Source: a virus. From it: 64,000 bases of DNA. Location of the stretch: IMG/VR virus record IMGVR_UViG_3300030117_004272, positions 1 through 64,000 of that record. One strand, 5' to 3'. The position numbers and the translations under genes are program-made. The notes below the pieces were generated by a model. That model saw nothing but the letters and a program-made list of their open reading frames with translations, ran no database searches and was not told where the DNA came from. Below are positions 3,175 through 64,000 of this stretch, in pieces; the first letter of the stretch is position 1; each line of letters begins with the position of its first letter.

Positions 3175-3202
3175 CAGTTCTGAGAAACTTTTCAGTTTAC
3201 TT

Positions 3203-4969: not shown

Positions 4970-4996
4970 ACTTGAAATCTAGTAGTTATAAAGGTA

Positions 4997-6590: not shown

Positions 6591-6644
6591 GTTTAATTTT
6601 TTCTAGACATAATTACCTAAAAGGATTATTAAAAGATCCTCGCT

Positions 6645-9051: not shown

Positions 9052-9081
9052 GAAAATAAGAAAATAAGACAATAAGAAAAA

Positions 9082-9720: not shown

Positions 9721-9721
9721 C

Positions 9722-9958
9722 ATGTCAGAAGATAAAGTAGAAAGAATTATTGAAGACGAGCAGAGTATTTTTCAAGGGGAGTTAACTCAACTTGAAGGTA
9801 TTTTAGCTGAAATTGACGAAAAGATTGATGCTTTAAAAGTACAGAAAAAGAAAATGCAGACATTATCTAATGTATTTAACTCTGCACTTGAAGGCATCCA
9901 ACACGATCTTAAACAAGTAGAGCTTGGTCTGGAAGAATCCTCACAACATTCCGATTAA
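9722..9958 (+). CDS. Small acidic coiled-coil protein
   Basis: 78 aa with a heptad pattern. Confidence 0.6.
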   Translation: MSEDKVERIIEDEQSIFQGELTQLEGILAEIDEKIDALKVQKKKMQTLSNVFNSALEGIQHDLKQVELGLEESSQHSD

Positions 9959-10092
9959 GCATTTAAAAATTTTACGTAGTCATACGTAAAAACAGGGGCT
10001 CCGTTTCAGTGAGTTCCTTCATAGTATGAGAGGGATCGCCTACTCCTGTTCGTGGGGGACAGGGGTAGGCACTCTCATGAAAAATACCTCTT

Positions 10093-11856: not shown

Positions 11857-14024
11857 TGGAATATAGATATATTAAAAACCTGTGCGACAACAAAGCGACT
11901 AAGTCAAAGGACTTATCAACTTTACAAAAAAAGAAACCAGCCTTTAAAGACAAAGCTAAATTTAGAGCTTGGTGTGCTGACAAGAATACAGATCATTGTT
12001 TCTACAGTACTGTTATAGGAGACACTCCCTCGCTTCGAGTTTCTTCAAGTAACCCACCCCATACAGTATGGGGAGTCGTAGCTGATTACGACGCTCCTAT
12101 AGATTTCTCAATCATCGATAAAATACTAGCGACTCAATGTAAATCTGCAATGCCTACGTGGAGATCGAAAACTCAGTCAGGTTATTTGAGATTGGTCTGG
12201 GAGTTTGAATCAGGAATTACAGTTGCCCCTGATTTGTTTGCAGAGTTCATGAAGAGGATGGCTAATTACTTAGCCTTAGATAGAATCTGTGCAGGGTTTG
12301 ATAAGTCTTCTCTCAAAGCTAGTCAGTACTTTGAGTTAGGAGTTGATTGGACAAAAGTAGGAGATCCTTTAGATGAATCTATTTATCAATCTGCATATAG
12401 GAAAGCAGCGATGGATAAGCCTCCACAAGTGTCTGAAGTTTCTATTCCTATTGATGTTATTGCTGAAGAGGTAAATAAAAGATTTCCTAACCGATGGGAG
12501 GGTGAATTTAATGTAGGTGGCAGAGGTCCTTTGTTCTGGATCGATGATGGTATAGAAAGAGAAGGTTGTCAGGTTTCAGACAACGGTATGGTTACCTACA
12601 GTGATAGAGCGGGAAAAGGTTTTGTTACTTGGACAGAGATATTTGGTAAAAAGTTTGTGTCTGATTATGAGACTACAAAAACTTCAGGTATTCTCGATAC
12701 GTATTGGTACAACGGTAAAACGTATTTCAAACTAATTTACGGGGCTGCACAACAAATTCAGGAGAAACAACTTATACTAGAGTTAAGGCAAGCAGGGTTC
12801 TCTCCTAAGATAAGAGCAGGTAAAGCTTGTTCAGAGGTAGAGAATGCACTTGTTTCTATCTGCAACGATAATCGTATCGACGAGATAGCTCCTGTTATCT
12901 TTTCAAAAGACAGAGTTGTTACCTACAATAGTAGAAGGATACTTAATAACGCTAATATAAATCCTGTTAAACCCGCAGACTCAGGGGACAAAAAGGATTG
13001 GCCTTTCATACACAAATGGTTATCTAGTTTATTTGTAAATAATTCAAAGACTCCTACAATAGATTACTTTTATGCGTGGCTACAAAGGTTTTATGTATCT
13101 GTAATAGATAAGAATGCAGCGCAAGGTCAGGCTTTACTTTTAGTGGGGCCTACTAACAAAGGAAAATCACTGTTAAGTAACTGTGTTATCTCTGCATTAG
13201 TGGGAGGTTTTGCGGATGCTTCTGAATACATATCAGGAGGCACAAGCTTTAACAAAGACTTAGGAGGTAAAGCTGCGTGGGTGATTGACGATACGGTTAG
13301 TGCGGCTTCTTTTCAGGATCAGCGCAAAGCAACAGAGTTAATTAAGAAAGCAGTAGCTAATCCTAGAATGGAATACCATGCGAAACATGTAGATGCGATT
13401 AGTGTTCCGTGGACAGGTCGAGTTATAATGTCTCTTAACATGGACCCTAACAGCCTTAGCGTGATACCTGCATTAGACTCAAGTAACCGTGACAAGATTA
13501 TGGCACTGCTTATTAGTGAGACTTCTAGAAGTAAGTTTCCTCCTAACCACATTCTGGAGCAAACAATAAAAGACGAACTGCCGTACTTTGCTAAATTTCT
13601 AATAGACTTTAAGCCTCCAAAAAGCGTGTTAGGTACTTCTAGATTCGGAGTTGATTCCTACATTGACCCTGTTATAGCAAGTGCTGCTTACGATAATTCA
13701 AGCAGGTCAAGTATTGCAGAGCTTGTTGAGTTTTTTGTTAAAAGAGCTAGGGAGTATGGACATAGTGTTTCATGGAGGGGGACCCTTACAGATTTTCAAG
13801 TTACGGTTCAAGACTTTAATGGAGGGAGGAATGTTGGTATGTCTGGTTCTATGGAGTTTTTACGTAGGGGGATTGGTATAATGGAAGATGCTGCCCGTAA
13901 CAATTCGCACTTACGCCCTATAAAATCCAAAGGTCAAGGAGGGGGTAAGATTTGGGAAATTGATCTGGACGAGAAATATGATATAGATAATATTCAAAAT
14001 GACAAAATAATAGCCGTTTTATGA
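11856..14024 (+). CDS. Primase-helicase (N-terminal PrimPol-like domain, C-terminal SF3/DUF5906-like NTPase)
   Basis: VADYD and TQSGYLRLVW in the N-terminus; Walker A GPTNKGKS, WVIDD and MSLN in the C-terminus; coupled to polA. Confidence 0.8.
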   Translation: MEYRYIKNLCDNKATKSKDLSTLQKKKPAFKDKAKFRAWCADKNTDHCFYSTVIGDTPSLRVSSSNPPHTVWGVVADYDAPIDFSIIDKILATQCKSAMPTWRSKTQSGYLRLVWEFESGITVAPDLFAEFMKRMANYLALDRICAGFDKSSLKASQYFELGVDWTKVGDPLDESIYQSAYRKAAMDKPPQVSEVSIPIDVIAEEVNKRFPNRWEGEFNVGGRGPLFWIDDGIEREGCQVSDNGMVTYSDRAGKGFVTWTEIFGKKFVSDYETTKTSGILDTYWYNGKTYFKLIYGAAQQIQEKQLILELRQAGFSPKIRAGKACSEVENALVSICNDNRIDEIAPVIFSKDRVVTYNSRRILNNANINPVKPADSGDKKDWPFIHKWLSSLFVNNSKTPTIDYFYAWLQRFYVSVIDKNAAQGQALLLVGPTNKGKSLLSNCVISALVGGFADASEYISGGTSFNKDLGGKAAWVIDDTVSAASFQDQRKATELIKKAVANPRMEYHAKHVDAISVPWTGRVIMSLNMDPNSLSVIPALDSSNRDKIMALLISETSRSKFPPNHILEQTIKDELPYFAKFLIDFKPPKSVLGTSRFGVDSYIDPVIASAAYDNSSRSSIAELVEFFVKRAREYGHSVSWRGTLTDFQVTVQDFNGGRNVGMSGSMEFLRRGIGIMEDAARNNSHLRPIKSKGQGGGKIWEIDLDEKYDIDNIQNDKIIAVL

Positions 14025-14302
14025 CCAGACAAGAAATAGAAAATTTTATTGAAAAGACTATATCAACAGCATCTGTAATATTAGCAGATGATTTAGATGA
14101 AGCTTTTGTAGGTATTGATGTAGAACATGGGCCACCTAGAGCTGTTTATTCTATAGAAAAATGTATAAACTTGTTAGCCCAAGATATGTCTACCGTTGAA
14201 GCCGATGAATACTTTTGGCACAACGTAGCAGGGGCATTAGGAGAGGGGCTACCTATTTACATATCGACTCCTGAAGAAGAAGAGGAAAGTCCTTACGACT
14301 AA
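14021..14302 (+). CDS. Conserved phage hypothetical protein (paralog of 5568..5831)
   Basis: ADDLDEAFVG...AVYSIEKCI...EYFWHNVAGA..GE..PI. Confidence 0.7.
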   Translation: MTRQEIENFIEKTISTASVILADDLDEAFVGIDVEHGPPRAVYSIEKCINLLAQDMSTVEADEYFWHNVAGALGEGLPIYISTPEEEEESPYD

Positions 14303-14303
14303 A

Positions 14304-14834
14304 TTATTTATAACTAAATGGATTATTAAGCTTATCCATTTCTGTGTGGTATCCCGCTGCCTTGTAAGTAAACCCGTGATCATCTTGTTCCCCTCTTTTT
14401 TTAAACTGAGCTACTTGGAAAAATTTAGTCGTAGGCAACCATCCTACAATCCAGACAAACATTAAGTCTTTCCTGACTCTGGTAAAAAAATAAACATCGT
14501 TATCAGGGATTTTCTTAGAGGACCCATTAACAGAAACAGAGTATTCGGGTTTCGGGATGGACCCACAAGTTTTAGACTTAACCTCTATTCGTTTATGTCG
14601 ATGTTCTAAATCATGAGTAAAAACATAATTGCCTACATAGACACTTTTTTTAATAAATTTATTAACGACTATCTCTCCTAAACAACCAGTCATACGGCCC
14701 ATGCCTTGAGTAAATGAATTAGGAAGAACTCCCATTTCAGTAGCCCTTGTATGCGCGAGAGATATATCATCACTAGAGGGGGTGTAGACTGCGAAGGGAC
14801 CGCTTTCTTTAAAACCTTGTTTTCTTACACTCAA
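14304..14834 (-). CDS. Putative PD-(D/E)xK-fold nuclease
   Basis: GCLGE...HDL...IEVKSK restriction-endonuclease-like motif. Confidence 0.55.
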   Translation of the reverse strand: MSVRKQGFKESGPFAVYTPSSDDISLAHTRATEMGVLPNSFTQGMGRMTGCLGEIVVNKFIKKSVYVGNYVFTHDLEHRHKRIEVKSKTCGSIPKPEYSVSVNGSSKKIPDNDVYFFTRVRKDLMFVWIVGWLPTTKFFQVAQFKKRGEQDDHGFTYKAAGYHTEMDKLNNPFSYK

Positions 14835-14838
14835 ATTT

Positions 14839-15135
14839 TCAAGTTGCTCGTTTCAAAAATAACTCCCAAGCAGGAAAAAATATTTCTTCCATACAGCGTA
14901 CAACAGCTTCTTGGTCGTAGTTCTCAAGCCACCCTACTCCACTTATGAGTAGACTAGCTTCCATCATTTCGTGACGAATAGTATTTAATAGGACTTTACC
15001 TTTTAAATTTTTATTTATTTCGATAGTTTTTTTATCGTGTAAATACAATCCGAAGTCAGGACTGTCCCCATTAAAAGGAACTAGCTCAAGTTTTACCCTC
15101 TGCCCTGCAATCGATATTGTTTTAGGCAGTTGCAC
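14839..15135 (-). CDS. Small zincin-like protein (HExxE variant)
   Basis: FGLY...IEINK...TIRHEMMEA...QEAVV. Confidence 0.55.
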   Translation of the reverse strand: MQLPKTISIAGQRVKLELVPFNGDSPDFGLYLHDKKTIEINKNLKGKVLLNTIRHEMMEASLLISGVGWLENYDQEAVVRCMEEIFFPAWELFLKRAT

Positions 15136-15136
15136 A

Positions 15137-15691
15137 TTACCACCTTTCTGAGAGTTCTTTGTAGAGTTCTATCCCCGCAGCCATTGCAGTAGCCATACCC
15201 TCCATATTTTTTAAAGCGAGCTCCCAATCCTCCTCATTACTACCAAAAAACGGTTCTGCGATAGTCGCAGGACAGTGCGTTAATCTTAAAAACCCTGCTC
15301 CTCTACTGCCTTTCTTGCGGGGTTTGATCCCTCTACTCCTTAACTGAGGGAAACAATCCTCAAAAGAATCCCGTAAAGATCTAGCGAACAACCTGCCTTT
15401 CTCTGAAGTATTCCAGTACAACCACTCATGCCCTGTCGCTGATGGAGTAGCAGCGTTAAAATGAAGTTCAATCGCTGCTTCAACAGCATCATGTTTTAAA
15501 GCTCTAGCGAGCCATTTCATAGAACTCCAATAACTATTACCTTTGTAGGTAGAATAAATTTTATGTGGAGTCTTCAACCTGTCGCTGATCATATCAGCTA
15601 ATTGGGAGTTGTAGTCCCATTCAGTGACTCCAGTTACGGAAGCGGCACCTGAATCATTTGGTCTGCTGTGTCCCACGCATATTGCTATCAT
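15137..15691 (-). CDS. Endolysin, N-acetylmuramoyl-L-alanine amidase (Amidase_3)
   Basis: CVGHS, TEWDYN, IELHFNA, GHE, FLR, IAEPFFGSN: the zinc amidase motifs. Confidence 0.92.
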   Translation of the reverse strand: MIAICVGHSRPNDSGAASVTGVTEWDYNSQLADMISDRLKTPHKIYSTYKGNSYWSSMKWLARALKHDAVEAAIELHFNAATPSATGHEWLYWNTSEKGRLFARSLRDSFEDCFPQLRSRGIKPRKKGSRGAGFLRLTHCPATIAEPFFGSNEEDWELALKNMEGMATAMAAGIELYKELSERW

Positions 15692-15923
15692 CTCCTATTA
15701 TTATAGCACGTCTGTAGGAATAATCACTGTGAAACTTCTGCCCACGACCCATGAGGTTGCCTTCTTTGAAAGGATAGTCATACCCTTTTATAAGGGTAAT
15801 TGTAGCAGGATCATAAAGATTGCTTTCGTTCAAACTGGAGTCTCCTGCTAAGTCTTTCAAGGCGCAGCTTGGCAGCAGGAGAACCATCAGCAGCAAGGCG
15901 GTCAGCTTCATCTTCAAGATCAT
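15654..15923 (-). CDS. Lipoprotein, putative o-spanin (Rz1-like)
   Basis: Signal peptide and lipobox MKLTALLLMVLLLPS-C; overlaps the upstream ORF and the endolysin. Confidence 0.55.
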   Translation of the reverse strand: MILKMKLTALLLMVLLLPSCALKDLAGDSSLNESNLYDPATITLIKGYDYPFKEGNLMGRGQKFHSDYSYRRAIIIGDDSNMRGTQQTK

Positions 15924-16002
15924 AAATATGTTTTCTATGCTTATACTTAGTATACGCAGCGTATGAACTCAAAGCTGCTTTTATTATTTTTATGAAGGTC
16001 AC
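15811..16002 (-). CDS. Small lysis-cassette protein, possible i-spanin (Rz-like)
   Basis: Helical; overlaps the lipoprotein gene out of frame as in Rz/Rz1 pairs. The transmembrane segment is weak. Confidence 0.35.
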   Translation of the reverse strand: MTFIKIIKAALSSYAAYTKYKHRKHIYDLEDEADRLAADGSPAAKLRLERLSRRLQFERKQSL

Positions 16003-16097
16003 TTTTTAGTCTTCTTATAAGCGTCCTTTAAAAGTTTCTTTTTAGCAGTTGGCTTTTTAGAAGCCTTCTTTTTTTTGCCGTAAGATTTCCCGTACAT
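15999..16097 (-). CDS. 32-aa very basic mini-protein
   Basis: Hand translation MYGKSYGKKKKASKKPTAKKKLLKDAYKKTKK; start and stop overlap both neighbours. Confidence 0.5.
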   Translation of the reverse strand: MYGKSYGKKKKASKKPTAKKKLLKDAYKKTKK

Positions 16098-16261
16098 TAT
16101 TTCTTTTTAGATAAAATTGACCATATAACACCCACGAGAGTGACTGCTGCTGATACACCAGTCGTAACCTCACTATCTGTTGCTATACCATTCTGAGTCA
16201 TGAATCCTCCACCGAAAGTAAGGATATGACGTATGATTCCTAAGATTGATTCTTTATTCAT
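16097..16261 (-). CDS. Putative holin (54 aa)
   Basis: Hand translation MNKESILGIIRHILTFGGGFMTQNGIATDSEVTTGVSAAVTLVGVIWSILSKKK; two hydrophobic segments, basic tail, upstream of the endolysin. Confidence 0.7.
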   Translation of the reverse strand: MNKESILGIIRHILTFGGGFMTQNGIATDSEVTTGVSAAVTLVGVIWSILSKKK

Positions 16262-16431
16262 TTTTTCTTTTTTATTAAATTATATAACGTAATTATAGCT
16301 ACTGTGATACCTAAAAGGCCACCAATGACTTGAATAACCCATTGGATAAATTCAGCATAAGGTATAGTAACAGCTATAAGTGAACCTGTTACACCTGTAA
16401 CTCCTTTAGTTATTATCTCACTGTTACTCAT
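16258..16431 (-). CDS. Small membrane protein, holin/antiholin-like (57 aa)
   Basis: Hand translation MSNSEIITKGVTGVTGSLIAVTIPYAEFIQWVIQVIGGLLGITVAIITLYNLIKKKK. Confidence 0.6.
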   Translation of the reverse strand: MSNSEIITKGVTGVTGSLIAVTIPYAEFIQWVIQVIGGLLGITVAIITLYNLIKKKK

Positions 16432-50708: not shown

Positions 50709-53700
50709 CTACTCTACAGGAATGTAACGTCCGTAAGTTTCGAGTTGGTTATTAAAGGTACGCAATCTTTCAATATGAGTATCCCCTTTGACTGCCATGT
50801 TACGGATGAACGGAGTCTGCAAAGCGGGACGCTCCATCAAACCATTTAGGAGTAAAGCGACTCGACGTTTACCATACCCACGCTCTATTGCTTGAGAGTA
50901 TATCTGCTCATCAGTAAGACCTAACTTCTTGAATCCTCTAAATGCTCTAATTAAATGTTCATTAATACGTCTACGTCTTTCAATCTCCGTATCAGCCATA
51001 CCTCTTACAGCATCTTCTGATATCGAGTCATCTGTATACATACGGTTTTTAAGTGCTGCTGCTCTACGATATTCACCTGCTCTTTCTGACAGGAACCGAT
51101 CAAGCTGTTGTTCAGGTACTATGTCATATGGTCTAAGGGGTAAGAACTCTTTAGCTAATGCCCCTAAAGGAGTCATGATAAAATCAGATACGTCTGGATC
51201 TCCCTCCATCAATTTAACAAACCCGTCTTTATATACTTTCTCAAGGGTTCTTGGGGCATAAGCCTCTGAAAAAATAAACTGAAACTTTTTAGAGAAGGCT
51301 TCCCATGCAGTGTCATTAACCTCTGTAATAGGTCTACCATTCTCTGGATCTCTATTATTTAATGCACTGGTTACAGCGCCTGCCAGTATTTGTTGGTCGA
51401 GATACTGGTCGGCAACCATCGCTTTAAAGAAAGCGGCTCCCGCTTCTGCTGGACTACCCCTCATTAACTCATCAAAGGAACGTAGGAATGGATCGACCAT
51501 CATGGCGTATGGGTTAAGATAAGTTAAATCTAATGATTTTAATTGACCTCCTTTAGTATAGTAGAAGAATGAGTTGCTTCTTAAATACTCAGGCATCGAA
51601 TCTCTAAGAGCTTCTTCCTCTTCGTCCCCTATACCAGTGAGGGCATTCACAACAACTTGCGATATTGCGGAGAACCCTACTAACACGGTAGTGAATCCAA
51701 TCATTCTATTCTTACCTCGTTTTCTAATAACTGGATTAGTATCCGCCATTTCTTTCCTCGCTAAGAGAACTGTGTTTAGCATAATCCTTGGAACCTCTAG
51801 TTTGAATCGGATGAACGGAGCGAACATTACCCCGAACCATGTACCCTGTAACTTCTGAACAAACGGTGGGGCTTGATCATAGCTTTGTGCAGTTTTCTTT
51901 ACTTTATCTGCAGCCATCTGCATAAGTTCTTCATCGCTCAAATCTCCGTAATTAATCTGGTTCTCTGCTGTTGAAGCAACGTGTTTAGATCTAGCTTGTT
52001 GTAAAACCTCTAGCTCATTCATGAAGTAAGCAATCTTATAAAAACTATCTACAGTTTGTGATAGCTCTCTCAACCTACGAGCAAACCTACCTGCTCTTGT
52101 TTTACCTACTTTCTCTGATATGACACTAATATCTAATGCCTTCTTATCTCCACTTGTTTCACTTTCAAGACCAGCAAGATTATCCAACAATTCTTTCTGA
52201 AGCTGCGCTTCGCTTCGAGGGTTTGTTAAAAAGTCCTGTAAGAGTCTAGCTTCTATTTCATTGCCAATAACCCCTAACCCGATCATGGTTCTATGGAACG
52301 CACTCACTTCTTCTGGAGCCATTGATAAGTATTTCTTCCGCACAAACTCTTTCTCTAATGATTTACCCATCTTACCAAACCTCCAGAATCCTTGAGACGG
52401 CCCAAAGAAAACAATGTTTGAAGCTATGTTTCGAACATAGAATCCAATAGATCCTAATGTCTTAGCTCCTAAAGATAGACCCGTTAACTTAGCTCCTACT
52501 TCTGTAACAAACTGGTTTGCTTTGTCGGCTTCGGTCTGAGTTACTTTCGCTTTAGGATCAAGTATAGCAGAAACAGCTTGTTCCATTTCTGTAAGAACAT
52601 AATAAGTTTTCCCGTCTGCAAATGGCGCTGTATTAATAATACTAGTGTCTGCTCCAGCAGCTACTTTTAAAATACTATAACCTTCAGGTGCGGGTTTGTA
52701 TGTAGCTGCCTCTCCCTCAATCTGCACTTCGTCTAGTTCGGCCTCTATAATGAATGGCTGTCCTCCTGTTTTTTTGGTGTCCATACCAAACTTCTTGAGG
52801 TTGCTAATGAAGTTTATTTGAGAAGCAATTAAACCAAGATGTGAGAAAGTTTGCAGTAGTTCATTATATCCAGTCTCATCGTCAACTTGACCTAACAATT
52901 CCCGTAACTCTTGCGGAGGATTTTTACGCCTCTTCAAAGCTCCGATGTTTAAACTTACAATACTTTTTGCGTGGTCTTTAAGGTTATTAAATAAATTAGA
53001 TGCCGATCTATCACTTTTAATATGTAAATCGAGATAATCATTTACGAGCTTCGCTTTAAATTCAGCAACCGTAGGGAAGTTTTTAACTTCGTTACGCCAA
53101 TCTTTATTGAATGTCTTATATTGTTTATATAGAAAGTCACCTGCATTTTTCCGTACAGTGTCATATCTAGAGTCTGTTCTTATGTTATCCCTGTATTCTT
53201 TATCTGAAAAAAGTTTATACTCTCTGTGTAGATACAGTTGTAAGTTGTCATCAATAGCAATACCCATTTCACTATCCTCCCCTACGATGCCACGTATAAC
53301 TGTTGATAACTCATCAGTTAAGGCTCTTAACCCTAATGCTTTTTTACCATCTATTTCCCCACCAAGCAGATGCCTAACTAGTCTTGTTTTATTAGAGTCT
53401 TTTTCAGGAACCTTTTGTATTTTAGCTAACTCGCTTATAGCTTTTTTCTTCCTATCTCTAAATTCTTTTCTTCTCCCCTGCACATACTTAGCTCTTATCT
53501 CAGCAATCTTCGATTCGGATTTAACTCCTTTTATTAAATCAAGATATGCTTGTTCTGTTTCGGGAGATATGTTTTCACGGCTACCTACTAATGCTTGTAT
53601 CAAAGCAACAGGTGCTTTGCCGTCAAAATCTTCTTTGATTATTTTATCTAGCTGATTCTTAAAGTTAACAACATCAGCTTCGACAGCATCTTGTATTTGT

Positions 53701-56700
53701 CTTCTTTGTTCTACAAGTCTTCTTATTCTTGGGTCTAAGTCTCCCCTAAACTTATTTACTAAACTTCCAAATAAGCCATCTTTCTTTTTCCTATATTTAC
53801 CAGTCTCAAAGAAAGGTAAATCAAACAAAGGTGCATAACCCCCATAACCTAAACCACCTTCAGCCGTATCGAATGTACCGCTTTCAAGACCACCCTCTTG
53901 TGTGAATCGGACATCCCCTTCTCTACCGTAGTCAGGACGACTACCCCATACAGGTTTTTGTATATACACTCTGTTCCCTATATGGATAGCTTCACTACCA
54001 CCTACTACAGGTACAGGATCTAATGGGTTTGTTATATCTACAAACTCTGAACTTCTTAGAGGGTTTATTGCAACTTCAACCCAACGATTATCTCCTGTTT
54101 GTTTGGGGCCAACTTTACCACTAGCCCAGTTTTTACGGAAAGTATTTAACTGAGCAGGGGTGAACTCCATCAACTCACCTTCCGTAGAAGCCATAAGTCC
54201 TTTGTTACGTCCTACAGCTATTCTCGCTGCTGACTTTTCGTAACGTGTTATCTCTTTAAGTTTTATCCTCGCATAGTTTGTATAGGCTTTTGGCCCTTTC
54301 ATTTTTGGCCCTGCTATAGATACAGCATAAATAGGAGACCCTTTTTTTATAGACTCATTAAAAGTAGGTATGTCTAACCTAATGGATACAGGTTCACTCC
54401 CAATTAATTTATATGCTTGTGAATAAGGTACTGTCCCATGTGTAGAAGAACCATCTTTCGTTTTCTTATCGGCACTAATAAATTTAAGTATATTACTAAC
54501 GGTTGGGGTTTTTGGTACTTCAGTATTTTTATAAGGAAATACTCTGTTACGGATTTCATTATATGTTGCTTGATTTATCTTCTTTGATTTATCCTTTGAA
54601 AATAAACGGTTGGCAGCTACAGCGAGTATGCCTGACCTATCTTTATTTTTGTGGAATGCCGCCTTCTCAAATATCTCTTGCTCTGCAGGATCGTCAAGAT
54701 CACTAGCAGTTTTTACTTTCACAAGAGAAGCAACTTGCCTCTCGTTTACCTGTGATGTGATCGGAGGAACATCTTCTATATTATCATAAACACCTTCTAA
54801 AGAACCTGCTTGTGTTTCACGTACAGGTTGTATTCTTCCAGCAGCCGCACTGACTTGTTCCATCTTCTTCTGCCTATCTACTTTAAGATCGGCATCATAT
54901 TTAAATGGCCCAAGTTTCTCCTCCATGATTTCAGCAGGAGCTTCTTTTGAGTTACGTCTTTTCTTAAAGTTTTCATTTGGAGATACTACACTTTCACCAC
55001 GAATCTCTGAGGCTTTATCCAACATGATTTCATGTGAGCCTTTGTCACGACCAAGATCACTGACAAAACTTACAAAATTTAAGTCTGGATTCTGCTTCTT
55101 ATTTGTTTCAACAAAAGATGCAATAACATTACCTAACGCATTTATACTCTCTTTGTATGCTGCTACATCAAAAGGAAGTGCAAAAGTTTGCCCTATACCT
55201 CCATCTTCTACAGGTAACTTAACAGCTACTTTCCTTTCCATACGGCCTATCTGATCAACAGGGTTAACAGAGAACAAACCCGTGTTATCGTACGGAGGGA
55301 AGTCGTGCCAAAAATCTTGAGGCACAACTCCTAAAGGTTCTGAAATTGTTACGTAGTATACCCTACCATATTTTTTACTTACCCCACCATCATCAGTAAC
55401 CTTCCTCATTTTGTTATATGATTTATATGTTACATTTCCACGCATCGTAGGGCTCTGTATATCACACCAAGGTTTGGTCGCAGCACATGGTACGAATGCA
55501 ATAGTGTCATACCCATCAGGAATCTCAAAGTTCGACATATCTGAATGCCAGTTAGAAACTTTTTCGTTCTTAATTAATGCTGCTGTCATAGCAGGAGTAG
55601 GAGCGAACATGTCAAAAGTAAGTTCAGGAAGCTGAACGCCTTGAGATTTTCTAACTGCTTCTCTTGTTGAGTTGTATATACCTTTCCTTTTGTTAAAGAA
55701 ATATCTAATAAATCTAATAAGCTGGACAGGAGGTAGTACGAGTTTATTTGATGGTTTACCTGTTTTAAGTGATTTAAAAGGTTTACCTAATTGTTCAAAC
55801 TCTGCGTCGTTTATCTTTAATGTATCCTTTATGAAAGACTCAACTTGAGCTGCATCATCAAGATCTAAGTTATCGACAGCTTTATCTATATCGAAAGCTC
55901 CCGCTTGAGTTTCACGTACACCCGTTGGAGGTGAATACCCGAACTCGTAAATTGAATTACCTTCGGTGATCAACTCCCCTGCCTTAACTTCTTTGGTTAA
56001 TACTTTATATCCTTTGTCACCAAACATTCTAGCCCCATGCATTTCAGCATAGTCACGATCCGTAGACACCCAATCTCCTGCATTAATCCCTCCTTTTACA
56101 TTTGATGGTACACCTCTGTATACAGTTACTTTAGCATCAGGGTTTCCACGTACAGATACAATTTGATCATATACCTTCTGGTCATTAGTCGTATCGTATG
56201 AACCACCAGTACCATAAATTCTTAATCCATCAGATGAGTAAAAGTCAGATGGATAAATACTTTCATCCATAGCACTCATTGGTGACCCGTAACCTCTGTC
56301 GGGGGCTCTATGAGATCCTCTATAATCTAACTCACCCTCTTGTGTTTGCCGCACACCCATATCGATCTTCCTATTTGGATCACGATCAACGAACGGTTTA
56401 TCATCGAGATATGTTATAACTTTATTTATAGAGTTTTCTGGATCATCAATATCAAACTTGATCGCAGTGCTAACCTCAAAACCACCTTTCAGTCTTGTCA
56501 TCTCACCTGTCAGTCTGTGCATAGCTGCGGATATAACAGGGTTATCAGCATCTAACTCCCTTATAGCATTAAAACGATTTATATAAGAACGTAAGTAGCG
56601 TAATAATACTCGAACAAAACTTGGGTTGGTTTTGTAAAACTCTATCTCTTCTTCTGTAGTGTACCCTTTAAGTATTCTTTGTGCCTTCATACGTAAGTAC

Positions 56701-59700
56701 TCATCAACTATTACGTGTTGCATGCTACGCTGATCTACACTCAAAGCGTCAGGGCCAAGTTGACTACGAGCCGCTTGTCTTTTCTCATCTGTCTTATAGT
56801 ATGTGTCTATAATCTCGTTTACTTGAGTATCAGATAATACAGAAAATATAATGTCTATCTCAGCTTTACTTAAATTTCTCCACGCTGCGTGGTGTATAAC
56901 CTCATGAGATGCTTCGAATCGAGCGACGTGTTGTGCATTAGCTTTATTTAACCCCATCGTAAGTCTAGCAAGACCCCAAGGGTTTATAACAAGACGCATT
57001 CCTTCTTCAGTCTGCTCTGCTCTGTATGCTCCTAATCCTTTATTCTTTTCATTATAATCTACACGAGACTCCATACCCCAGAAATCGGCAACTTGTTGTG
57101 CGTCAGTTCTTGCGTCTAGATATCTTTGATAATGCTCATCGGCACTAAGCCCTTCCCCTAACTCAATGGATTTTTCTTTTGTCCCCCACACAGTGTCGAA
57201 AGTTTTTACAAGCTGCTCCTCTTGCTCTATTGCCCTCTGCCTTCCTTCTTCTAATTGTCTTTCGAGATCCTCATCTAAAACACCTTCTTGCGTTTCCCGC
57301 ACTTCTTCAGCTTTACTTTCTTTTAAAATAACATCTGCCTCTCCTTGAGTTATTAATTGTTTTTCTAATTTACTACGTACCTGTTCTTCTAGTTTTTGTA
57401 TATCGATGTTACTTTCTTGCCTATCTGATTTAATGACTTCTGATATCGCTTTTTTCTGAGCGGCTTCTGTCACCTCTTGTGGAGTAGGTATTACAATAGG
57501 CTCTCTTGATCTAGCAGCAGTACTTAACTGCCTTGATAACTGTTCTTTGTTTTCTTCGAAAAACGCTTGTGTTAAAGGAGAGCCTGTTTCTCCTAAGTTT
57601 TTTATAATGTTATCTATTGTTTCTTGTTGAAACCTTTCGTAACGGGCTCCTGTGCCTTTATCAAACATATTCTGAACACCTACAACACCCCCACCCATAG
57701 CACCCCCTAAAGAGGCAGCATGTAGTCCAACCATCATCCGATCTATCATTGGCGTGTTTTCATTAAGGGCAGCATCCGTAATGAATGTTTGTATAAATTC
57801 ATCAAGACCTTCTTCAGCAGCTTCACTAGCTGCAGGAATACCGAACTGCCTCAAAAAAGCAGAGTTTTTAGTAGCCGTCTTCATTTGTTTTTCAATAGTA
57901 CTACCTATTACTTCCCTTACTTTAGATGACCCATAACCTCTTATGTCTAAGTTTAGTATCTTTGACATCCCCGATGTCATACCTTTGTAAGTCATGCCTC
58001 TAAGAAATGCTTGTTCAAAACCTCCTAAACCTATACCCATAAACGCAGTCGTAAGTAGTCCTGTCACAGTACCCCCCATCATCGCATAACCCAAAGCAGC
58101 GTCGTGCTTTTCTTCGTGTGTTAAGGAGTCTGGTTGTGCTGCATATATAGTAGCGTAAGTATTACCCGCACTTCTATTTGCAGCCGTTAAAAATAAAGGC
58201 GGGAATGGTGCTGCTTTACGGAAAGTTTTATTAGCTATCGCTTTGTTATAAGCCTTGATTGCTTCTTGTACTCCTTCACTAACTACTTTATCGCCCGAAT
58301 CCTTTCCCTTCTTTCTAGCTGCAGCCTTCAATGCAATATCTTTTGCTGTATCACCGAACTGTCTACCCGTAGCAGCCTTAGTTAAATTTTTAACAAGTGC
58401 TTTAGCTGTTTGTTTAGCTCCAGCTTTAGCTCCAGCATATAAAACACCACCAGTACCTAAAGTTGTTGCAGACAACAAAGCTGTTGCAGAGACATCCACA
58501 ACCATTGGTGCAACCACGTTTGAGAGATCCATACCCCAACCAAACTCGTCACCAAAAATTGCAGCGACTTCTCGTCTACGTTGTCTATCCATTTGGTTAT
58601 CGACCAAATACTTTGTAGCCCCTTCGCTTTTAAAAATTACAGCACCTAACGAAGCAAATAATCCTATTACCGCATCAGGCACAGTTGCTGCTATATCTCC
58701 TAATCTGTTTTTTATAGAACTGTAATTACGCTTATCAGCTAAGAAAGTATCCAATATGTCTACATCGGGAGTTCCGCTAGCCCTTCCCGCTTGTTTTGCA
58801 GCCATCCAATTATCACTTGTCGCTGCTGTATCGGCCAGAAACTTATCGTACTGCTCATAAGTTAACTGCCTGTACAATTTACGCTGATTTCTGAGCGATG
58901 TAATTTGATCCTCTGACAATCTATCATCGTTCTTGATCGCCTTCTCGAACCTCTCTCTTTGTTGCATAAGGTTCGGGTGTGCCAGCACATGGCCACTCCC
59001 TAATATGCGGATGTTCTTAGAATCATCTTCGTCGTAGAATTTAAATTCTCCTTTTTCATTTACCTCGTTCGCTGCCAATAGTTCAACAGCATCTCTGATC
59101 TCTTTATCAGAGTATCTTTCAAGAGCAGCTCCTTCACCAAATCCATTCTTACGTGCATACTCTGACGACAATCCTTTACGGAAATCTGCAACAACATCTA
59201 AAATATCTTGCTCCTGATCTAAATCAGAATCCTCATCCTTCGCTTTGATAAGCTCACGCATCGTATCGAGTGCGTCCTGTGGTATGCTATCAACTTCATC
59301 TTCTGATCCTAAGATTGCATTAAGTTCAGTTAAGAGCTGCGCTTGCCTTATGTTTTCAAATACACTAGCATCGGACACTCCCTTTTTTAAACCAGACATA
59401 ACACGATATGCATCTGAATAGTTCAATGCTCCTAGTCGAACTGCATCGTCCAATGACTTACCTCTATCAGTTATGTCAGCACCACCAATAATTTTATCTA
59501 TACCTTTAGCGTCTTTTACTCTAGCAAAAGGCAGAATCCCTGAATCAACTAGTAGCATTTTTGCACTGTTAAGTTGCTTATCAAGCTCCTCTTGATTCCC
59601 GCTTTCACTTTGTATGTTACTAAGATAAGTAGACCCTGCTTGCTCACCATATGCCATACGTATTAAGTTAGCTTGAGTCTGTGCATCAGCTTGAGGTTTG

Positions 59701-60008
59701 AGCGTATCTAAAAAATCCTCTGATTCAACTTGTTCGGGGGTTACTAATTGATTGTTAAGTAAACTGCCTACTAACCCTTGTGTGATTGATGATTCTACTT
59801 CGTCATCAAGCTCACCTGTACGGAAGAAATGTCCTCTTTGATAATCAGCATAGCCTTGAGCACTGAGCAATGGATCATTGATATTTGACCCTGAAGAGGC
59901 TGACCACTGACTGAATGATTGTAGTGGTGCGACGTTGAAGTTTAAGTCAAGGTCATTAGGCACGGGGGTTTTCTCCCCCAACGATAATGTTGGATATAGG
60001 TCTGACAC
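50709..60008 (-). CDS. Giant polyvalent internal virion protein (copy B): zincin + ART-like + ArcS/DUF5591-like + unknown modules
   Basis: 3099 aa. Hydrophobic Gly/Ala-rich segments in the N-terminal third; HEVIHH; VYRGVP...WVSTD...EFGY; PCAATKPW...SEPLGVVP; five VRxTQxG separators. Confidence 0.8.
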   Translation of the reverse strand: MSDLYPTLSLGEKTPVPNDLDLNFNVAPLQSFSQWSASSGSNINDPLLSAQGYADYQRGHFFRTGELDDEVESSITQGLVGSLLNNQLVTPEQVESEDFLDTLKPQADAQTQANLIRMAYGEQAGSTYLSNIQSESGNQEELDKQLNSAKMLLVDSGILPFARVKDAKGIDKIIGGADITDRGKSLDDAVRLGALNYSDAYRVMSGLKKGVSDASVFENIRQAQLLTELNAILGSEDEVDSIPQDALDTMRELIKAKDEDSDLDQEQDILDVVADFRKGLSSEYARKNGFGEGAALERYSDKEIRDAVELLAANEVNEKGEFKFYDEDDSKNIRILGSGHVLAHPNLMQQRERFEKAIKNDDRLSEDQITSLRNQRKLYRQLTYEQYDKFLADTAATSDNWMAAKQAGRASGTPDVDILDTFLADKRNYSSIKNRLGDIAATVPDAVIGLFASLGAVIFKSEGATKYLVDNQMDRQRRREVAAIFGDEFGWGMDLSNVVAPMVVDVSATALLSATTLGTGGVLYAGAKAGAKQTAKALVKNLTKAATGRQFGDTAKDIALKAAARKKGKDSGDKVVSEGVQEAIKAYNKAIANKTFRKAAPFPPLFLTAANRSAGNTYATIYAAQPDSLTHEEKHDAALGYAMMGGTVTGLLTTAFMGIGLGGFEQAFLRGMTYKGMTSGMSKILNLDIRGYGSSKVREVIGSTIEKQMKTATKNSAFLRQFGIPAASEAAEEGLDEFIQTFITDAALNENTPMIDRMMVGLHAASLGGAMGGGVVGVQNMFDKGTGARYERFQQETIDNIIKNLGETGSPLTQAFFEENKEQLSRQLSTAARSREPIVIPTPQEVTEAAQKKAISEVIKSDRQESNIDIQKLEEQVRSKLEKQLITQGEADVILKESKAEEVRETQEGVLDEDLERQLEEGRQRAIEQEEQLVKTFDTVWGTKEKSIELGEGLSADEHYQRYLDARTDAQQVADFWGMESRVDYNEKNKGLGAYRAEQTEEGMRLVINPWGLARLTMGLNKANAQHVARFEASHEVIHHAAWRNLSKAEIDIIFSVLSDTQVNEIIDTYYKTDEKRQAARSQLGPDALSVDQRSMQHVIVDEYLRMKAQRILKGYTTEEEIEFYKTNPSFVRVLLRYLRSYINRFNAIRELDADNPVISAAMHRLTGEMTRLKGGFEVSTAIKFDIDDPENSINKVITYLDDKPFVDRDPNRKIDMGVRQTQEGELDYRGSHRAPDRGYGSPMSAMDESIYPSDFYSSDGLRIYGTGGSYDTTNDQKVYDQIVSVRGNPDAKVTVYRGVPSNVKGGINAGDWVSTDRDYAEMHGARMFGDKGYKVLTKEVKAGELITEGNSIYEFGYSPPTGVRETQAGAFDIDKAVDNLDLDDAAQVESFIKDTLKINDAEFEQLGKPFKSLKTGKPSNKLVLPPVQLIRFIRYFFNKRKGIYNSTREAVRKSQGVQLPELTFDMFAPTPAMTAALIKNEKVSNWHSDMSNFEIPDGYDTIAFVPCAATKPWCDIQSPTMRGNVTYKSYNKMRKVTDDGGVSKKYGRVYYVTISEPLGVVPQDFWHDFPPYDNTGLFSVNPVDQIGRMERKVAVKLPVEDGGIGQTFALPFDVAAYKESINALGNVIASFVETNKKQNPDLNFVSFVSDLGRDKGSHEIMLDKASEIRGESVVSPNENFKKRRNSKEAPAEIMEEKLGPFKYDADLKVDRQKKMEQVSAAAGRIQPVRETQAGSLEGVYDNIEDVPPITSQVNERQVASLVKVKTASDLDDPAEQEIFEKAAFHKNKDRSGILAVAANRLFSKDKSKKINQATYNEIRNRVFPYKNTEVPKTPTVSNILKFISADKKTKDGSSTHGTVPYSQAYKLIGSEPVSIRLDIPTFNESIKKGSPIYAVSIAGPKMKGPKAYTNYARIKLKEITRYEKSAARIAVGRNKGLMASTEGELMEFTPAQLNTFRKNWASGKVGPKQTGDNRWVEVAINPLRSSEFVDITNPLDPVPVVGGSEAIHIGNRVYIQKPVWGSRPDYGREGDVRFTQEGGLESGTFDTAEGGLGYGGYAPLFDLPFFETGKYRKKKDGLFGSLVNKFRGDLDPRIRRLVEQRRQIQDAVEADVVNFKNQLDKIIKEDFDGKAPVALIQALVGSRENISPETEQAYLDLIKGVKSESKIAEIRAKYVQGRRKEFRDRKKKAISELAKIQKVPEKDSNKTRLVRHLLGGEIDGKKALGLRALTDELSTVIRGIVGEDSEMGIAIDDNLQLYLHREYKLFSDKEYRDNIRTDSRYDTVRKNAGDFLYKQYKTFNKDWRNEVKNFPTVAEFKAKLVNDYLDLHIKSDRSASNLFNNLKDHAKSIVSLNIGALKRRKNPPQELRELLGQVDDETGYNELLQTFSHLGLIASQINFISNLKKFGMDTKKTGGQPFIIEAELDEVQIEGEAATYKPAPEGYSILKVAAGADTSIINTAPFADGKTYYVLTEMEQAVSAILDPKAKVTQTEADKANQFVTEVGAKLTGLSLGAKTLGSIGFYVRNIASNIVFFGPSQGFWRFGKMGKSLEKEFVRKKYLSMAPEEVSAFHRTMIGLGVIGNEIEARLLQDFLTNPRSEAQLQKELLDNLAGLESETSGDKKALDISVISEKVGKTRAGRFARRLRELSQTVDSFYKIAYFMNELEVLQQARSKHVASTAENQINYGDLSDEELMQMAADKVKKTAQSYDQAPPFVQKLQGTWFGVMFAPFIRFKLEVPRIMLNTVLLARKEMADTNPVIRKRGKNRMIGFTTVLVGFSAISQVVVNALTGIGDEEEEALRDSMPEYLRSNSFFYYTKGGQLKSLDLTYLNPYAMMVDPFLRSFDELMRGSPAEAGAAFFKAMVADQYLDQQILAGAVTSALNNRDPENGRPITEVNDTAWEAFSKKFQFIFSEAYAPRTLEKVYKDGFVKLMEGDPDVSDFIMTPLGALAKEFLPLRPYDIVPEQQLDRFLSERAGEYRRAAALKNRMYTDDSISEDAVRGMADTEIERRRRINEHLIRAFRGFKKLGLTDEQIYSQAIERGYGKRRVALLLNGLMERPALQTPFIRNMAVKGDTHIERLRTFNNQLETYGRYIPVE

Positions 60009-60046: not shown

Positions 60047-61156
60047 TTATTCGCTCCAATTCGAAGCTGCAGTTTCTGCAGCAGGGTTAGGAGCTTCTAA
60101 TTCTTGTCCAAGTCTCATGGAAAGCATTCTCTTTTGCCTTGCTAGAATTCCAAAGGCTTCGTTGAAAAGAGTTGTTGCGTCTTTTGCATCCAACGCTTCT
60201 CGTTCTTCTTCCGATAACGCTCCTTTCAACAACTCAATTAAATTAATTATAATTTCTTTATCTGTTTTCCCATCCAGTCCTATACCTTTATTAGCAAGAA
60301 GCTCTCTAACTAATGGGTCTGATGACCCATCTCCTTCTAATCTAAATAACATACCCTCAATATCTTCGAGTTCTTTTAACTGCTCTGTTCTTGTAATTTT
60401 ATTTTGCTCTAGTTTTTGTATAGATTTAGTAATATCTCTATATACAGGATTTAACATTCCTTGGAAAGGAGTAGTGTCTCCTCCTGATTTCGCTAAATCC
60501 ATTACCTGACTCCGAAGTTTATCTTGATCCGCTTTACTTGTTTTTAAAGAATCTCCTGCTCTTGTAAATAATGTGCTTATGCCAGTATCACTCATTACTG
60601 AAGAAACTGTAGGAGTCATCATTGTTGATACTAACGCTTTTTGTTTTTGTGAGTCTGTTGCTTTTGAGTCTAAAATCTGTTGGATTCTAGAAGCTACTTG
60701 TGGCCGTATCTGAGCTTTCAGTTGCTCATCCCTATTCTTTCTCTGAGCCATTTGTAAATCAACAAATGCCTTTCTGTCTTTAGAAATACCTCCTAATTGA
60801 GTCTCAAACTGTTTAGCGAACATGGCCTGTTCTGAAGCAGGTAACTTAGACGCTGCTATGTCAGAGAAATAAGCACCACGCAAGTCAGCCATATCTGCTG
60901 TTGGGTTGAATGATGGCCCTGCCTGACTCACCGAAGCAATACGCTGTTGTGCCTTTCTTTGTAATGCCCTACTATCAGGAGTCATTATAGTTGGCTCATT
61001 AAGACGTACCTTCTCCCCTTCCAAAGCCATTTGTTGCGCTGCTGCTGCGTAGCCTTTTCTACGTAGTCTACGTGCAGCTCTTTTATACTTAGAAGATGGG
61101 CGGTCTAAAGAATATCTTTGACCCAACTCATAGGATGGCATTGTAGTAAACTGCAT
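60047..61156 (-). CDS. Putative internal virion protein (copy B)
   Basis: Homolog of 929..2086. Confidence 0.6.
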   Translation of the reverse strand: MQFTTMPSYELGQRYSLDRPSSKYKRAARRLRRKGYAAAAQQMALEGEKVRLNEPTIMTPDSRALQRKAQQRIASVSQAGPSFNPTADMADLRGAYFSDIAASKLPASEQAMFAKQFETQLGGISKDRKAFVDLQMAQRKNRDEQLKAQIRPQVASRIQQILDSKATDSQKQKALVSTMMTPTVSSVMSDTGISTLFTRAGDSLKTSKADQDKLRSQVMDLAKSGGDTTPFQGMLNPVYRDITKSIQKLEQNKITRTEQLKELEDIEGMLFRLEGDGSSDPLVRELLANKGIGLDGKTDKEIIINLIELLKGALSEEEREALDAKDATTLFNEAFGILARQKRMLSMRLGQELEAPNPAAETAASNWSE

Positions 61157-61165: not shown

Positions 61166-61684
61166 TTATTTATTTCTTCTTCGTTCTCTTTCTAACTTCT
61201 TTTGCTGCCTTTTAAGTGCGTTCTGAAGCATATTTTTTCTAGAAGCCTCACTTGCAGGTCTCGCTCTCATATCTCCAATAGCCCTATCTGCTGCTGCAGA
61301 TGTTATGTCTTTACCAACAGGGCGGCCAAACTCAGTTTTAGCTCTGTTAAAAAACTCTGCTTTTTCTGCGTCAGATTTTACAGCTTGAGCTGATATTGGG
61401 ATTGAAGATTCATAACCGCCCATTGACCTACTCGCTGCTGCAGATGTTATGTCTTTACCAACAGGACGGCCAAAGTCAGTCTTTGCTCTATTAAAAAACT
61501 CTGCTTTTTCTGCATCAGATTTCACAGCTTGAGCAGACACAGGAGTTGATGAACGGAACTCGATGTCATCATCCATAAAAGGGTTTTTAGGTTCTGAAAG
61601 AACACCGAACTTCTTCTTTATAGAACCCCCTCCAAAGAGTTTATTCTGGTTGTCTCGCCTAAAATAACTGTTTCTCTCTGACAT
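61166..61684 (-). CDS. Hypothetical protein with an internal 35-aa duplication
   Basis: SAQAVKSDAEKAEFFNRAKT[D/E]FGRPVGKDITSAAA occurs twice. Confidence 0.65.
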   Translation of the reverse strand: MSERNSYFRRDNQNKLFGGGSIKKKFGVLSEPKNPFMDDDIEFRSSTPVSAQAVKSDAEKAEFFNRAKTDFGRPVGKDITSAAASRSMGGYESSIPISAQAVKSDAEKAEFFNRAKTEFGRPVGKDITSAAADRAIGDMRARPASEASRKNMLQNALKRQQKKLERERRRNK

Positions 61685-62871: not shown

Positions 62872-64000
62872 CTATGTTCCTTGTAAAGTTTGTGAAGAAA
62901 GCATATTAGATAAACCTTTAATAGATCTTCTTTGATAAGGTCTACTGCTTGTTTTCCCTGTTTCTAAAGGCTCAACTGCAACTAATCCGTGTCGCTGTCG
63001 AGCTAAATCTAAGCAGAGAAAGGCAGCATCAGCCAAGTCAGGGGACTTTCCAAGCCTTGATTTGTACTCAACCTTACTTTCTATCTTCATTCGGAGAGTT
63101 GCTCCTTTGATCATATCGTAGTTTCTACCCGTTATTTCCTGTGCCAAATCCCCATTTACCCCAAATATTTGCTTAGTCCTACAAAGTTCTTTGCCAACAA
63201 ACCACAGTTCTGTTACTCTATTAACATATAATTCACTACCGATTAATTTAGAACTAGCAGATACTTTACGATCAGATGCCTTCCCACCAAAAGAAACCCG
63301 CAAAATCTCGTCGCTCCATTCTCCAGCTAATACGTCACAAAATGGAGCACCTGCCCCCGTTGCGTCTACTGCAATATCCATCGGTTTTATCTTTCTTTTT
63401 TGACACTCCTGCTTCACCTGACGAACAATCTGGTAAGTCCTTGGAACCGCTTTGTTGGTGGCATCGTCATTCAAATGGATCGCTTCGCCCAACTCGCAAA
63501 CGTACTGGCCATTCGTGTCGTACCCAACGAGGCCCGTGTACAGGATGCATCGGTCGCCCCCGTTGGTAAATGCAGGGTCTAATCCTGCGATAGGTATAGG
63601 TTTACCTTTCCACTGCACTTTGTTCATAGCTCCACTGCGGGATAGTTCAGCTTCGTTGTATATGGTATCTTCTTCATCCCCATCGAAAAATACAGCACGG
63701 CACATCCTGTAGTAACCTCGTGACTCCTGCCCCAATAGTGCTTTATCTTCATTTAGTTTCTCAGTCGTTGGTAGCCAAGGGTATATGACTTCATCGGCTA
63801 TTACGTTAGGACTGCGTTCAGCATCAAACCTTATATACTCACCGCCCCATTTAGTCCTCCATTGGTAGTCCGTATTTGTATCAACACTATCCCACCCATG
63901 TTGTGGCGTAGCCCAAACACCGAAAGCATCAAATCTAGAGTTAGGGTTACTTAGTCCTACTAACTCAAAGCGTTCGTTCTTCGATAAGTTACTTAGTCCA
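62872..64000 (-). CDS. terL: Terminase large subunit (copy B), 5' end beyond the right edge
   Basis: The frame stays open to the edge (SNLSKN...LSNP.SRFDAFGV...PWLPTTEKLNEDKALL); GLDPAF and SPDLADAAFL; closely homologous but not identical to 3203..4969. Confidence 0.92.
   Translation of the reverse strand, partial: GLSNLSKNERFELVGLSNPNSRFDAFGVWATPQHGWDSVDTNTDYQWRTKWGGEYIRFDAERSPNVIADEVIYPWLPTTEKLNEDKALLGQESRGYYRMCRAVFFDGDEEDTIYNEAELSRSGAMNKVQWKGKPIPIAGLDPAFTNGGDRCILYTGLVGYDTNGQYVCELGEAIHLNDDATNKAVPRTYQIVRQVKQECQKRKIKPMDIAVDATGAGAPFCDVLAGEWSDEILRVSFGGKASDRKVSASSKLIGSELYVNRVTELWFVGKELCRTKQIFGVNGDLAQEITGRNYDMIKGATLRMKIESKVEYKSRLGKSPDLADAAFLCLDLARQRHGLVAVEPLETGKTSSRPYQRRSIKGLSNMLSSQTLQGT

Follow-up and report, generated by a model that had tools for sequence, protein, structure and literature searches.

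Lineage-specific peptides mark the module borders of a giant phage polyvalent protein and may act as processing sites

Introduction

The IMG/VR virus record IMGVR_UViG_3300030117_004272, of which positions 1 to 64,000 were analysed here as one stretch of 64,000 nucleotides (the window), carries a giant gene whose open reading frame (ORF) encodes 3099 amino acids (aa), and a short peptide, VRxTQxG, stands at every border between the modules of this protein. The motif is real and functional at the peptide level; it lies in disordered linkers, its site is conserved throughout a family of giant proteins, and distant lineages of that family carry a repeated peptide of their own at the same site. 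The giant protein is a phage polyvalent protein, in which two conserved end domains (the N-domain and C-domain) and a constant metallopeptidase-like module, M1, frame the exchangeable cargo modules M2, M3 and M4. We propose that the border peptide, [VI]-R-x-[TS]-Q-[AE]-G-x-[LI]-[DE], would be a protease recognition and cleavage site, and that its reader would probably be the protein's own M1 domain. Through short DNA identity the same peptide also acts as a joint for the gain and loss of cassettes. Taken as a whole, a processing site probably read by M1 and doubling as a recombination joint strikes us as evenly poised between right and wrong.

The polyvalent proteins surveyed by Iyer et al. 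(2017, J Bacteriol; PMC5512222) contain a metallopeptidase domain (MPTase) in ~36% of cases overall, and autoprocessing by this domain was proposed there, with cleavage sites, linkers and junction motifs left unnamed. A first-pass annotation, made from the letters of the window, had gone further and suggested that the zincin-like module cuts the giant protein at VRxTQxG, releasing anti-host effectors after ejection. The present analysis follows up that suggestion through comparison of the giant protein with its relatives, structure prediction and profile searches.

Results

A short peptide recurs at the module borders

The pattern VR.TQ.G occurs exactly five times in the 3099-aa protein, at the coordinates given in the first-pass annotation (Table 1), and is confined to it, there being no copy in the other reading frames of the window or in other ORFs of the 76.4-kb record. 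Composition alone predicts 0.002 copies per protein, and one copy or more appeared in only 45 of 20,000 shuffles of the giant protein. In extended form the motif of this protein reads [VI]-R-x-T-Q-[EA]-G-x-[LF]-[DE], and 36 distinct instances from the close lineage give the consensus [VIQD]-R-[EYFQ]-[TS]-Q-[AE]-G-[SAG]-[LI]-[DEN].

Relatives came from two sources. A protein database search returned 39 homologs of 2284-5334 aa (database protein P0002 is identical to the giant protein), and a scan of IMG/VR found 160 further loci of the giant-gene family, mostly in genomes of 55-65 kb, of which 78 were fetched and examined in addition to the database proteins. Hidden Markov models built from the alignment located the N-domain, M1 and the C-domain in every complete family member, with variable material between them.

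Comparison with these relatives supports the placement of the motifs at domain boundaries. The ends of BLAST-defined modules fall within ~1 aa of motif starts, and of 194 internal ends of high-scoring segment pairs, 124 are no more than 15 aa away from a motif, where random positions would give 4.3% (~15-fold enrichment). Each of 13 close relatives has as many motifs as it has borders, from two in the minimal arrangement (N-motif-M1-motif-C) to six in the largest. Module content thus differs among relatives while a repeated, lineage-specific peptide marks the borders.

The linkers were assessed in two AlphaFold models, one of aa 880-1240 (70 sequences; predicted local distance difference test score, pLDDT, 74) and another of aa 1200-2060 (16 sequences; pLDDT 58). 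All five motifs fall in segments of pLDDT<50, as expected of disordered linkers, and M3 is modelled as a compact domain (aa 1376-1722, pLDDT 80-97) exactly between motifs 3 and 4; motif 5 is less informative because M4 is of low confidence throughout its model. Motifs buried in folded domains were not found, nor was their absence from borders in homologs (for lineages in which M1 directly precedes the C-domain, see below).

A chance pattern, or a functionless remnant of internal duplication, is effectively refuted as an explanation by the expected frequency given above, by the mutual unrelatedness of modules M1-M4, which flank the motifs, and by the conservation of both peptide and site across relatives.

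A looser pattern, [ST]QAG, has a match in the gene directly upstream of the giant gene, in both copies of that gene present in the record (window 60047-61156, aa 80, VSQAGP; window 929-2086, aa 28, YTSQAGQ). We set such matches aside, their number fitting the chance expectation of 2-4 estimated from composition, though a propeptide site there is conceivable.

Lineages carry their own dialects at homologous sites

Across relatives of 57-97% identity it is the peptide that is conserved, and across the whole family it is the site. De novo repeat searches, carried out homolog by homolog, turned up a different repeated peptide in each of the distant lineages, at homologous sites. Examples are RESQ[AS]G, L[YR]SELGA, VGTSFGD, ATQFGA, LYSAPVA, LFSAPxS, LASGIT / SGITFGA, LQSRxGA, LDLESRFGAD, [TS]S[IV]GA and L[NR]SSLE. 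These dialect peptides share an alignment column before the C-domain, ~25-30 aa upstream of a conserved L-L-E-[LM]-P anchor. This is the position of motif 5, which is the ancestral site of the family. Usually they also occur directly after M1 and ~70-100 aa ahead of it, and in many lineages a counterpart of motif 1 precedes the core of M1 by ~70-100 aa. When the dialects were written as regular expressions and applied to 29 related loci, they matched essentially the giant ORF alone, with one stray match (L015).

Many modules end in a homologous tail, QIKSAxPVTxDxxGNxIPLSxRF-x5, and are then followed by the motif proper to each lineage, the sequences after the shared tail including DIRYTQAG, SFLYSELGA, SILQTSFGD, SILYSAPVA, SILRSGIT and AFIHSGITFGA. 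Because one homologous tail precedes a different motif in each lineage, the motif tracks the host protein and not the module. A motif that follows its host protein is what a lineage-specific reader would impose.

VRxTQxG belongs to a widespread junction element

A profile of the tail plus motif, 52 positions long, was searched against 1.84 billion cluster representatives and matched 4619 of them at E<=1e-3, including 2514 at E<=1e-10. The best 150 matches are mostly proteins of 2000-6500 aa with 2-4 tail copies each, and 143 of them lack the N, M1 and C domains of the present family. Their junction has the generic form D-I-R-Y/F-S, after which come residues peculiar to each protein and repeated within it; DIRFSVR, DTRFQPAD, DIRFMP, DIRYQRR, SILYxx and EEITNP are examples from unrelated giants. 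The shared tail starts at the end of the Pfam domain ART-PolyVal and extends past it, and it is also found after other domains. In 57 of 146 tail-bearing proteins, copies of the motif peculiar to that protein are present at tail-less sites as well. HExxH, in a typical zincin context, is present in 100 of 120 such proteins of at least 2000 aa, as against 23 of 600 shuffles.

Because the tail profile reaches thousands of mostly unrelated giants, VRxTQxG is not unique to its lineage; it is the local dialect of a general junction, one that many giant polyvalent proteins share.

Many unrelated polyvalent proteins (P0054-P0203) share a second conserved junction tail, …NPTENPDIRYS…, which is often followed by D-A-E-Y-M-x-A-V-E-x-G-D, the start of the next module. 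A tail is also present in Pseudomonas phage F116 (L082, NC_006552), whose gp60 (54250-59199; 1650 aa) contains two HExxH signatures and one ART-PolyVal tail that ends in PDILFS at aa ~681. This phage is cultured, and could provide a laboratory model for tests of junction cleavage.

A cassette has been gained or lost within the motif

Relative L002/P0003, which is 96% identical to the giant protein overall and 94-99% identical module by module, has an extra ART-PolyVal cassette of 269 aa between M3 and M4 that the giant protein lacks. Both ends of this cassette in L002 (~15.2 kb and ~16.0 kb) carry an identical 17-nt string, CAAGCAGGTTCTTTAGA, which encodes QAGSL(D/E) and lies inside the motif. 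The string flanks cassettes in L003 and L006 also, and the window has a single copy of it (54795-54811), in the slot of motif 4. Repeats of this kind are the trace that short-homology recombination leaves when a cassette is gained or lost. The junction is also a recombination joint, because the identical string stands at both cassette ends, and the 'plug-in socket' of the first-pass annotation, into which any domain could be added, finds direct support in this one-cassette difference flanked by 17-nt repeats within the motif.

The same repeats favour an alternative in which the junction is an uncut linker element that serves mainly as a recombination handle for in-frame cassette exchange, and maybe as a signal for packaging, unfolding or tail-threading. 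In its favour also, the virion RNA polymerase (vRNAP) of phage N4 and the plasmid proteins ArdC/TraC1 carry MPTase domains but reach the recipient cell without being cleaved (Iyer et al. 2017, PMC5512222). Synonymous codon differences among the five copies (GTG/GTA/GTC, CGG/CGT/CGA, ACG/ACA/ACT) point, however, to selection on the peptide. These differences had been taken to mean that conservation operates on the peptide and not on the DNA; the variation itself is confirmed, but the peptide level is not the only one, for the copies that flank cassettes share DNA identity. The occurrence of a different motif in each lineage after a homologous tail further requires adaptation of the peptide to a lineage-specific reader, beyond anything that DNA homology would produce, and a merely passive spacer in a disordered linker would not usually keep R, T/S, Q and G so strictly. 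On these grounds we hold an uncut junction to be possible, though on the unlikely side.

M1 as the candidate reader of the junction

The preferred explanation, that the peptide is a processing site, requires a reader, and M1 is the only constant internal domain of the giant protein and is itself flanked by motifs. Its model consists of an N-terminal helix, three strands, an active-site helix (143-166) that contains HEVIH, and later helices that contain E1103. Each of E1036, H1039, Y1070, E1103 and R1106 is kept in 67-68 of 70 relatives (68 of 70 for E1036 and H1039). In an all-against-all structural comparison the best matches are the minigluzincins, namely jannalysin 4jix (Z 5.9, root-mean-square deviation 4.9, 99 aligned), selecase 4qhf (Z 5.2) and 4jiu (Z 5.1), and further matches include the predicted zincin 3e11 (Z 5.2), Spartan 6mdx (Z 4.7) and the metalloprotease domain of ArdC, 6sna (Z 4.6), all of them weak, since Z<8 can represent a common arrangement; the weak top rows of a Foldseek search include anthrax lethal factor and MATCAP. 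The recognition of M1 as a zincin module agrees with the order of elements in the model and with the HExxH...E signature conserved in the close lineage; the family at large departs from the canonical motif, its signature being mostly EExxH. The pattern of substitution indicates that the M1 active site is under purifying selection, yet would be a non-canonical zincin in most family members.

Several observations weigh against cleavage by M1, or against cleavage altogether. H1035 is replaced by Glu in 54 of 70 relatives (77%) and is His in 14, and EExxH is atypical for zincins. The similarity of M1 to zincins is weak (Z <=5.9; Foldseek E >=0.17), and the Pfam MPTase models gave no match to M1. 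The motif had been expected to dock in the zincin active site; AlphaFold, run on aa 880-1240, instead left both M1-flanking motifs disordered and outside the cleft. No clear repeated motif was found in lineages in which M1 lies directly before the C-domain. Among the tail-bearing giants just described, 20 of 120 have no HExxH, and Pfam searches of six unrelated DIRYS-bearing giants gave ART-PolyVal or DUF7178 only and no peptidase model, the presence or absence of a protease not being scorable by Pfam. Part of the pattern can be accounted for by recombination alone, given the 17-nt identity at the cassette joints. The non-detection of a prohead protease (below) is weak evidence, because the phage is very divergent and its portal and capsid genes went undetected too. 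Finally, megablast and tblastn searches of 50,697 phage records recovered no relative of the giant gene and no cultured member of the family, the sole weak match to the C-domain being in Pseudoalteromonas phage vB_Pun_Y3.

In relatives L047 and L078 the M1 signature is degenerate and the junction between M1 and the C-domain has no motif, which agrees with M1 being the reader; with n=2 we have not used it as evidence.

Some of these points bear equally on a second alternative, in which the peptide is a cleavage site read in trans by an unrecognised head-maturation protease or by a host protease, M1 having its role elsewhere, for example in attack on the cell wall or on host proteins. Phage T4 offers a precedent, its internal proteins and Alt being cut by the prohead protease gp21 at L/I-x-E. 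The atypical EExxH of most relatives and the want of predicted docking in M1 agree with such a reader, which could be hidden among structural genes that are mostly unrecognisable here. The first-pass annotation had recognised no prohead protease between the portal and capsid genes, however, and searches of all six frames of the 76.4-kb record with S78, S77 and S49 (PF04586, PF03420, PF01343) likewise gave no match at E<=1. Prohead proteases normally cut scaffold, capsid or portal as well, whereas the motif is absent from other ORFs of the record and of related loci, and a host protease would leave unexplained the lineage-specific dialects found within one phage family. We consider a reader acting in trans improbable.

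Two further candidates were set aside. Homology of M1 to the N4 vRNAP (gp50) was given a probability of 0.2% by hhalign with the M1 profile, and a second HExxH, HEEKH at aa 631 in the N-domain, is not conserved outside the close lineage and was rejected as a protease signature.

Cargo modules

The only PHROGs match of the giant protein covers M2 and is to PHROG 2579 ('ParB C-terminal domain'), the C-terminal part of mycobacteriophage ParB-like proteins. M2 had been described as ART-like. This description found no support, as neither Pfam (at E<=1) nor PDB sequences gave a match to M2, and its half of the second model is of low confidence; true ART-PolyVal occurs only in relatives, as a different module. 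The assignment of M3 as an ArcS/DUF5591-like domain has partial support. Its stand-alone homologs P0045, P0046, P0048 and P0052 (35-40% identity) carry PF17884 in precomputed annotation, but the match of M3 itself, the only Pfam match in the giant protein, is below the cut-off (14.8 bits against 26; E 0.026). Modules of relatives include ART-PolyVal (PF18760) and DUF7178 (PF23802). PDB sequence searches with M2, M3 and M4 gave nothing below E 0.1, and Foldseek on the 861-aa multi-domain model returned noise only. A stand-alone protein of 304 aa in MW202462 that matches the tail of M1 plus M2 was uninformative.

The giant gene, its neighbourhood and the source record

Coordinates of the giant ORF and its parts are collected in Table 1. 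The gene lies downstream of terL (PHROG 2) on the same strand, in a viral record that also has a gene for a tail protein and a replication module (helicase, exonuclease, DNA polymerase and primase). This position near packaging genes, together with modules M1-M4 that are unrelated, occur independently and are differently combined among relatives, places the giant protein among polyvalent proteins. Gene position and the literature on such proteins suggest that it would be packaged in the virion and injected.

Table 1. Positions in the window of the giant ORF, its domains and modules, the junction motifs and the M1 signature residues.
Feature	Residues (aa)	Window coordinates	Strand	Remarks
Giant ORF	3099 aa	50709..60008	(-)	GTG start; stop codon within coordinates; N-domain, M1, three variable modules and C-domain
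N-domain	1-902	57303..60008	(-)	Conserved; Gly-rich hydrophobic segments; nearly all family members
Motif 1, VRETQEG	903-909	57282..57302	(-)	N-domain/M1 border; pLDDT<50
M1	910-1218	56355..57281	(-)	Zincin-like; every family member examined; AlphaFold pLDDT 74
HEVIH	1035-1039	56892..56906	(-)	HExxH signature of M1
E1103	1103	56700..56702	(-)	Candidate third metal ligand, in a later helix; kept in 68/70 relatives; invariant in alignment A1
Motif 2, VRQTQEG	1219-1225	56334..56354	(-)	M1/M2 border; pLDDT<50 in both models
M2	1226-1363	55920..56333	(-)	PHROG 2579 positions 335-464, E 3e-30; function unassigned
Motif 3, VRETQAG	1364-1370	55899..55919	(-)	M2/M3 border; in pLDDT<50 segment 145-176 of model 2
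M3	1371-1728	54825..55898	(-)	DUF5591-like enzyme domain
Motif 4, VRETQAG	1729-1735	54804..54824	(-)	M3/M4 border; slot of the extra ART-PolyVal cassette in L002 and L003
M4	1736-2032	53913..54803	(-)	Function unassigned; also in distant members P0015, P0031, L056-58
Motif 5, VRFTQEG	2033-2039	53892..53912	(-)	Directly before C-domain; ~25-30 aa upstream of the L-L-E-[LM]-P anchor
C-domain	2040-3099	50712..53891	(-)	Conserved; all family members

The 76.4-kb record is a join of two related genomes of ~59.7 kb, because its first 16 kb repeat from 59.7 kb onward: window 1-16282 recurs at 59.7-76.4 kb of the record with ~70% DNA identity (66-86%), and window 62968-64000 overlaps this repeat. The genes duplicated across the two genome copies are terL, those for internal proteins, those for replication and the N-terminus of the giant gene, the second giant gene being represented by its N-terminus only (window 1-894, minus strand). 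Between terL and the giant gene, copy B has three ORFs of unknown function (373, 172 and 369 aa) and copy A has two (325 and 385 aa). Terminal redundancy is a less likely explanation of the join than an assembly, chimeric or concatemeric, that has put two strains together.

Some other features of the window may be recorded. The N-domain contains, at aa ~470-680 (window ~58000-58600), several hydrophobic stretches rich in Gly and Ala, for example AMMGGTVTGLLTTAFMGIGLGGF, that resemble those parts of phage ejection proteins which insert into membranes. The 172-aa ORF at 61166-61684, two genes upstream of the giant gene, contains a 104-nt direct repeat of 92% identity (61290-61393 and 61434-61537). 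Numerous short direct repeats (36-74 nt, 82-100% identical) lie between the small genes of the early region on the plus strand (40.0-46.0 kb of the window).

Discussion

Cleavage at the peptide, M1 as the cutter and the timing of cutting are what we infer from the conservation, placement and lineage dialects of the motif. If cut at all five motifs, the giant protein would give six pieces, consisting of the N-domain (902 aa), M1 (316 aa), three cargo pieces (145, 365 and 304 aa) and the C-domain (1067 aa), the four internal lengths being those first reported. The several parts of this scheme differ in strength. That the junction is cleaved in some manner, whether by M1 or by a protease acting in trans, has moderately good prospects. 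The full earlier hypothesis, in which M1 makes the cuts and the effectors are released after ejection, seems to us somewhat doubtful, its chances falling a little short of even. Unlikely, though worth stating, is a universal and co-evolving 'junction code' in which D-I-R-Y/F-S plus 3-4 specific residues would mark the junctions of polyvalent proteins by the thousand, in phages and plasmids alike, the zincin-like domain of each protein would read and cut its own dialect, and ~17 nt of identity would provide in-frame docking of cassettes.

An explicit junction code appears undescribed in the literature that we searched, and neither Iyer et al. 2017 (PMC5512222) nor the other literature searched describes the junction motif; a polyvalent protein with an MPTase hub was already known. 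The present family provides exact candidate sites for the autoprocessing proposed in 2017, so that the proposal becomes directly testable. These sites evolve as lineage dialects and are tied to a junction element found in at least 4600 protein clusters, and the junction supplies a rule by which giant phage proteins can be parsed into functional units. That a cassette has come or gone exactly at a junction suggests how phages reshuffle an injected anti-defence payload. If the junction code were true, it would amount to a polyprotein system, general and programmable, by which anti-host enzymes are injected as one chain and then set free; if the sites are uncut, a conserved junction peptide still needs explaining.

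Parallels exist in other systems. In T4, gp21 acts on internal proteins and Alt as described above, and phiKZ-like head proteins are cut after S/A/G-x-E. These cases resemble the present one in that anti-host proteins packaged in the capsid and injected are released or activated at a short consensus, packaging and cutting being predicted here; they differ in that a trans-acting head protease cuts many head proteins, whereas our searches detected no protease of this kind and the motif is confined to one protein. Picornavirus 3C protease cleaves after Gln before a small residue, and the polyproteins of these viruses likewise join several enzymes by linkers in which a conserved Gln is followed by small residues, in dialects that co-vary with lineage; the protease is, however, of another class, and here the carrier is a DNA phage and the scissile site a candidate only. 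In the MARTX toxins of Vibrio a cysteine protease domain cuts between effector domains. No homology is involved, and in place of a cysteine protease domain and an inositol hexakisphosphate (InsP6) switch, neither of which was seen here, there is a metallopeptidase-like candidate in a phage carrier; the likeness lies in a giant delivered chain with conserved ends, swappable effectors, a protease in cis and short linker sites, with delivery and protease only predicted in our case.

Some members of the family come close in layout to the vRNAP of N4, gp50, an injected giant that runs from an N-domain through cargo and MPTase to a C-domain, its zincin-like domain directly preceding a C-terminal region of ~1000 aa (PMC5512222), but gp50 shows no profile similarity to M1, its RNA polymerase module has no counterpart here, and it is reported to be packaged uncleaved. 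With the polyvalent proteins (PMC5512222) the giant protein shares its main features, being a giant multi-domain chain encoded near packaging genes, with exchangeable enzymatic modules and a constant zincin-like domain; unlike them as described, its family has an M1 signature that is mostly EExxH, and a defined peptide, in lineage dialects, at every border.

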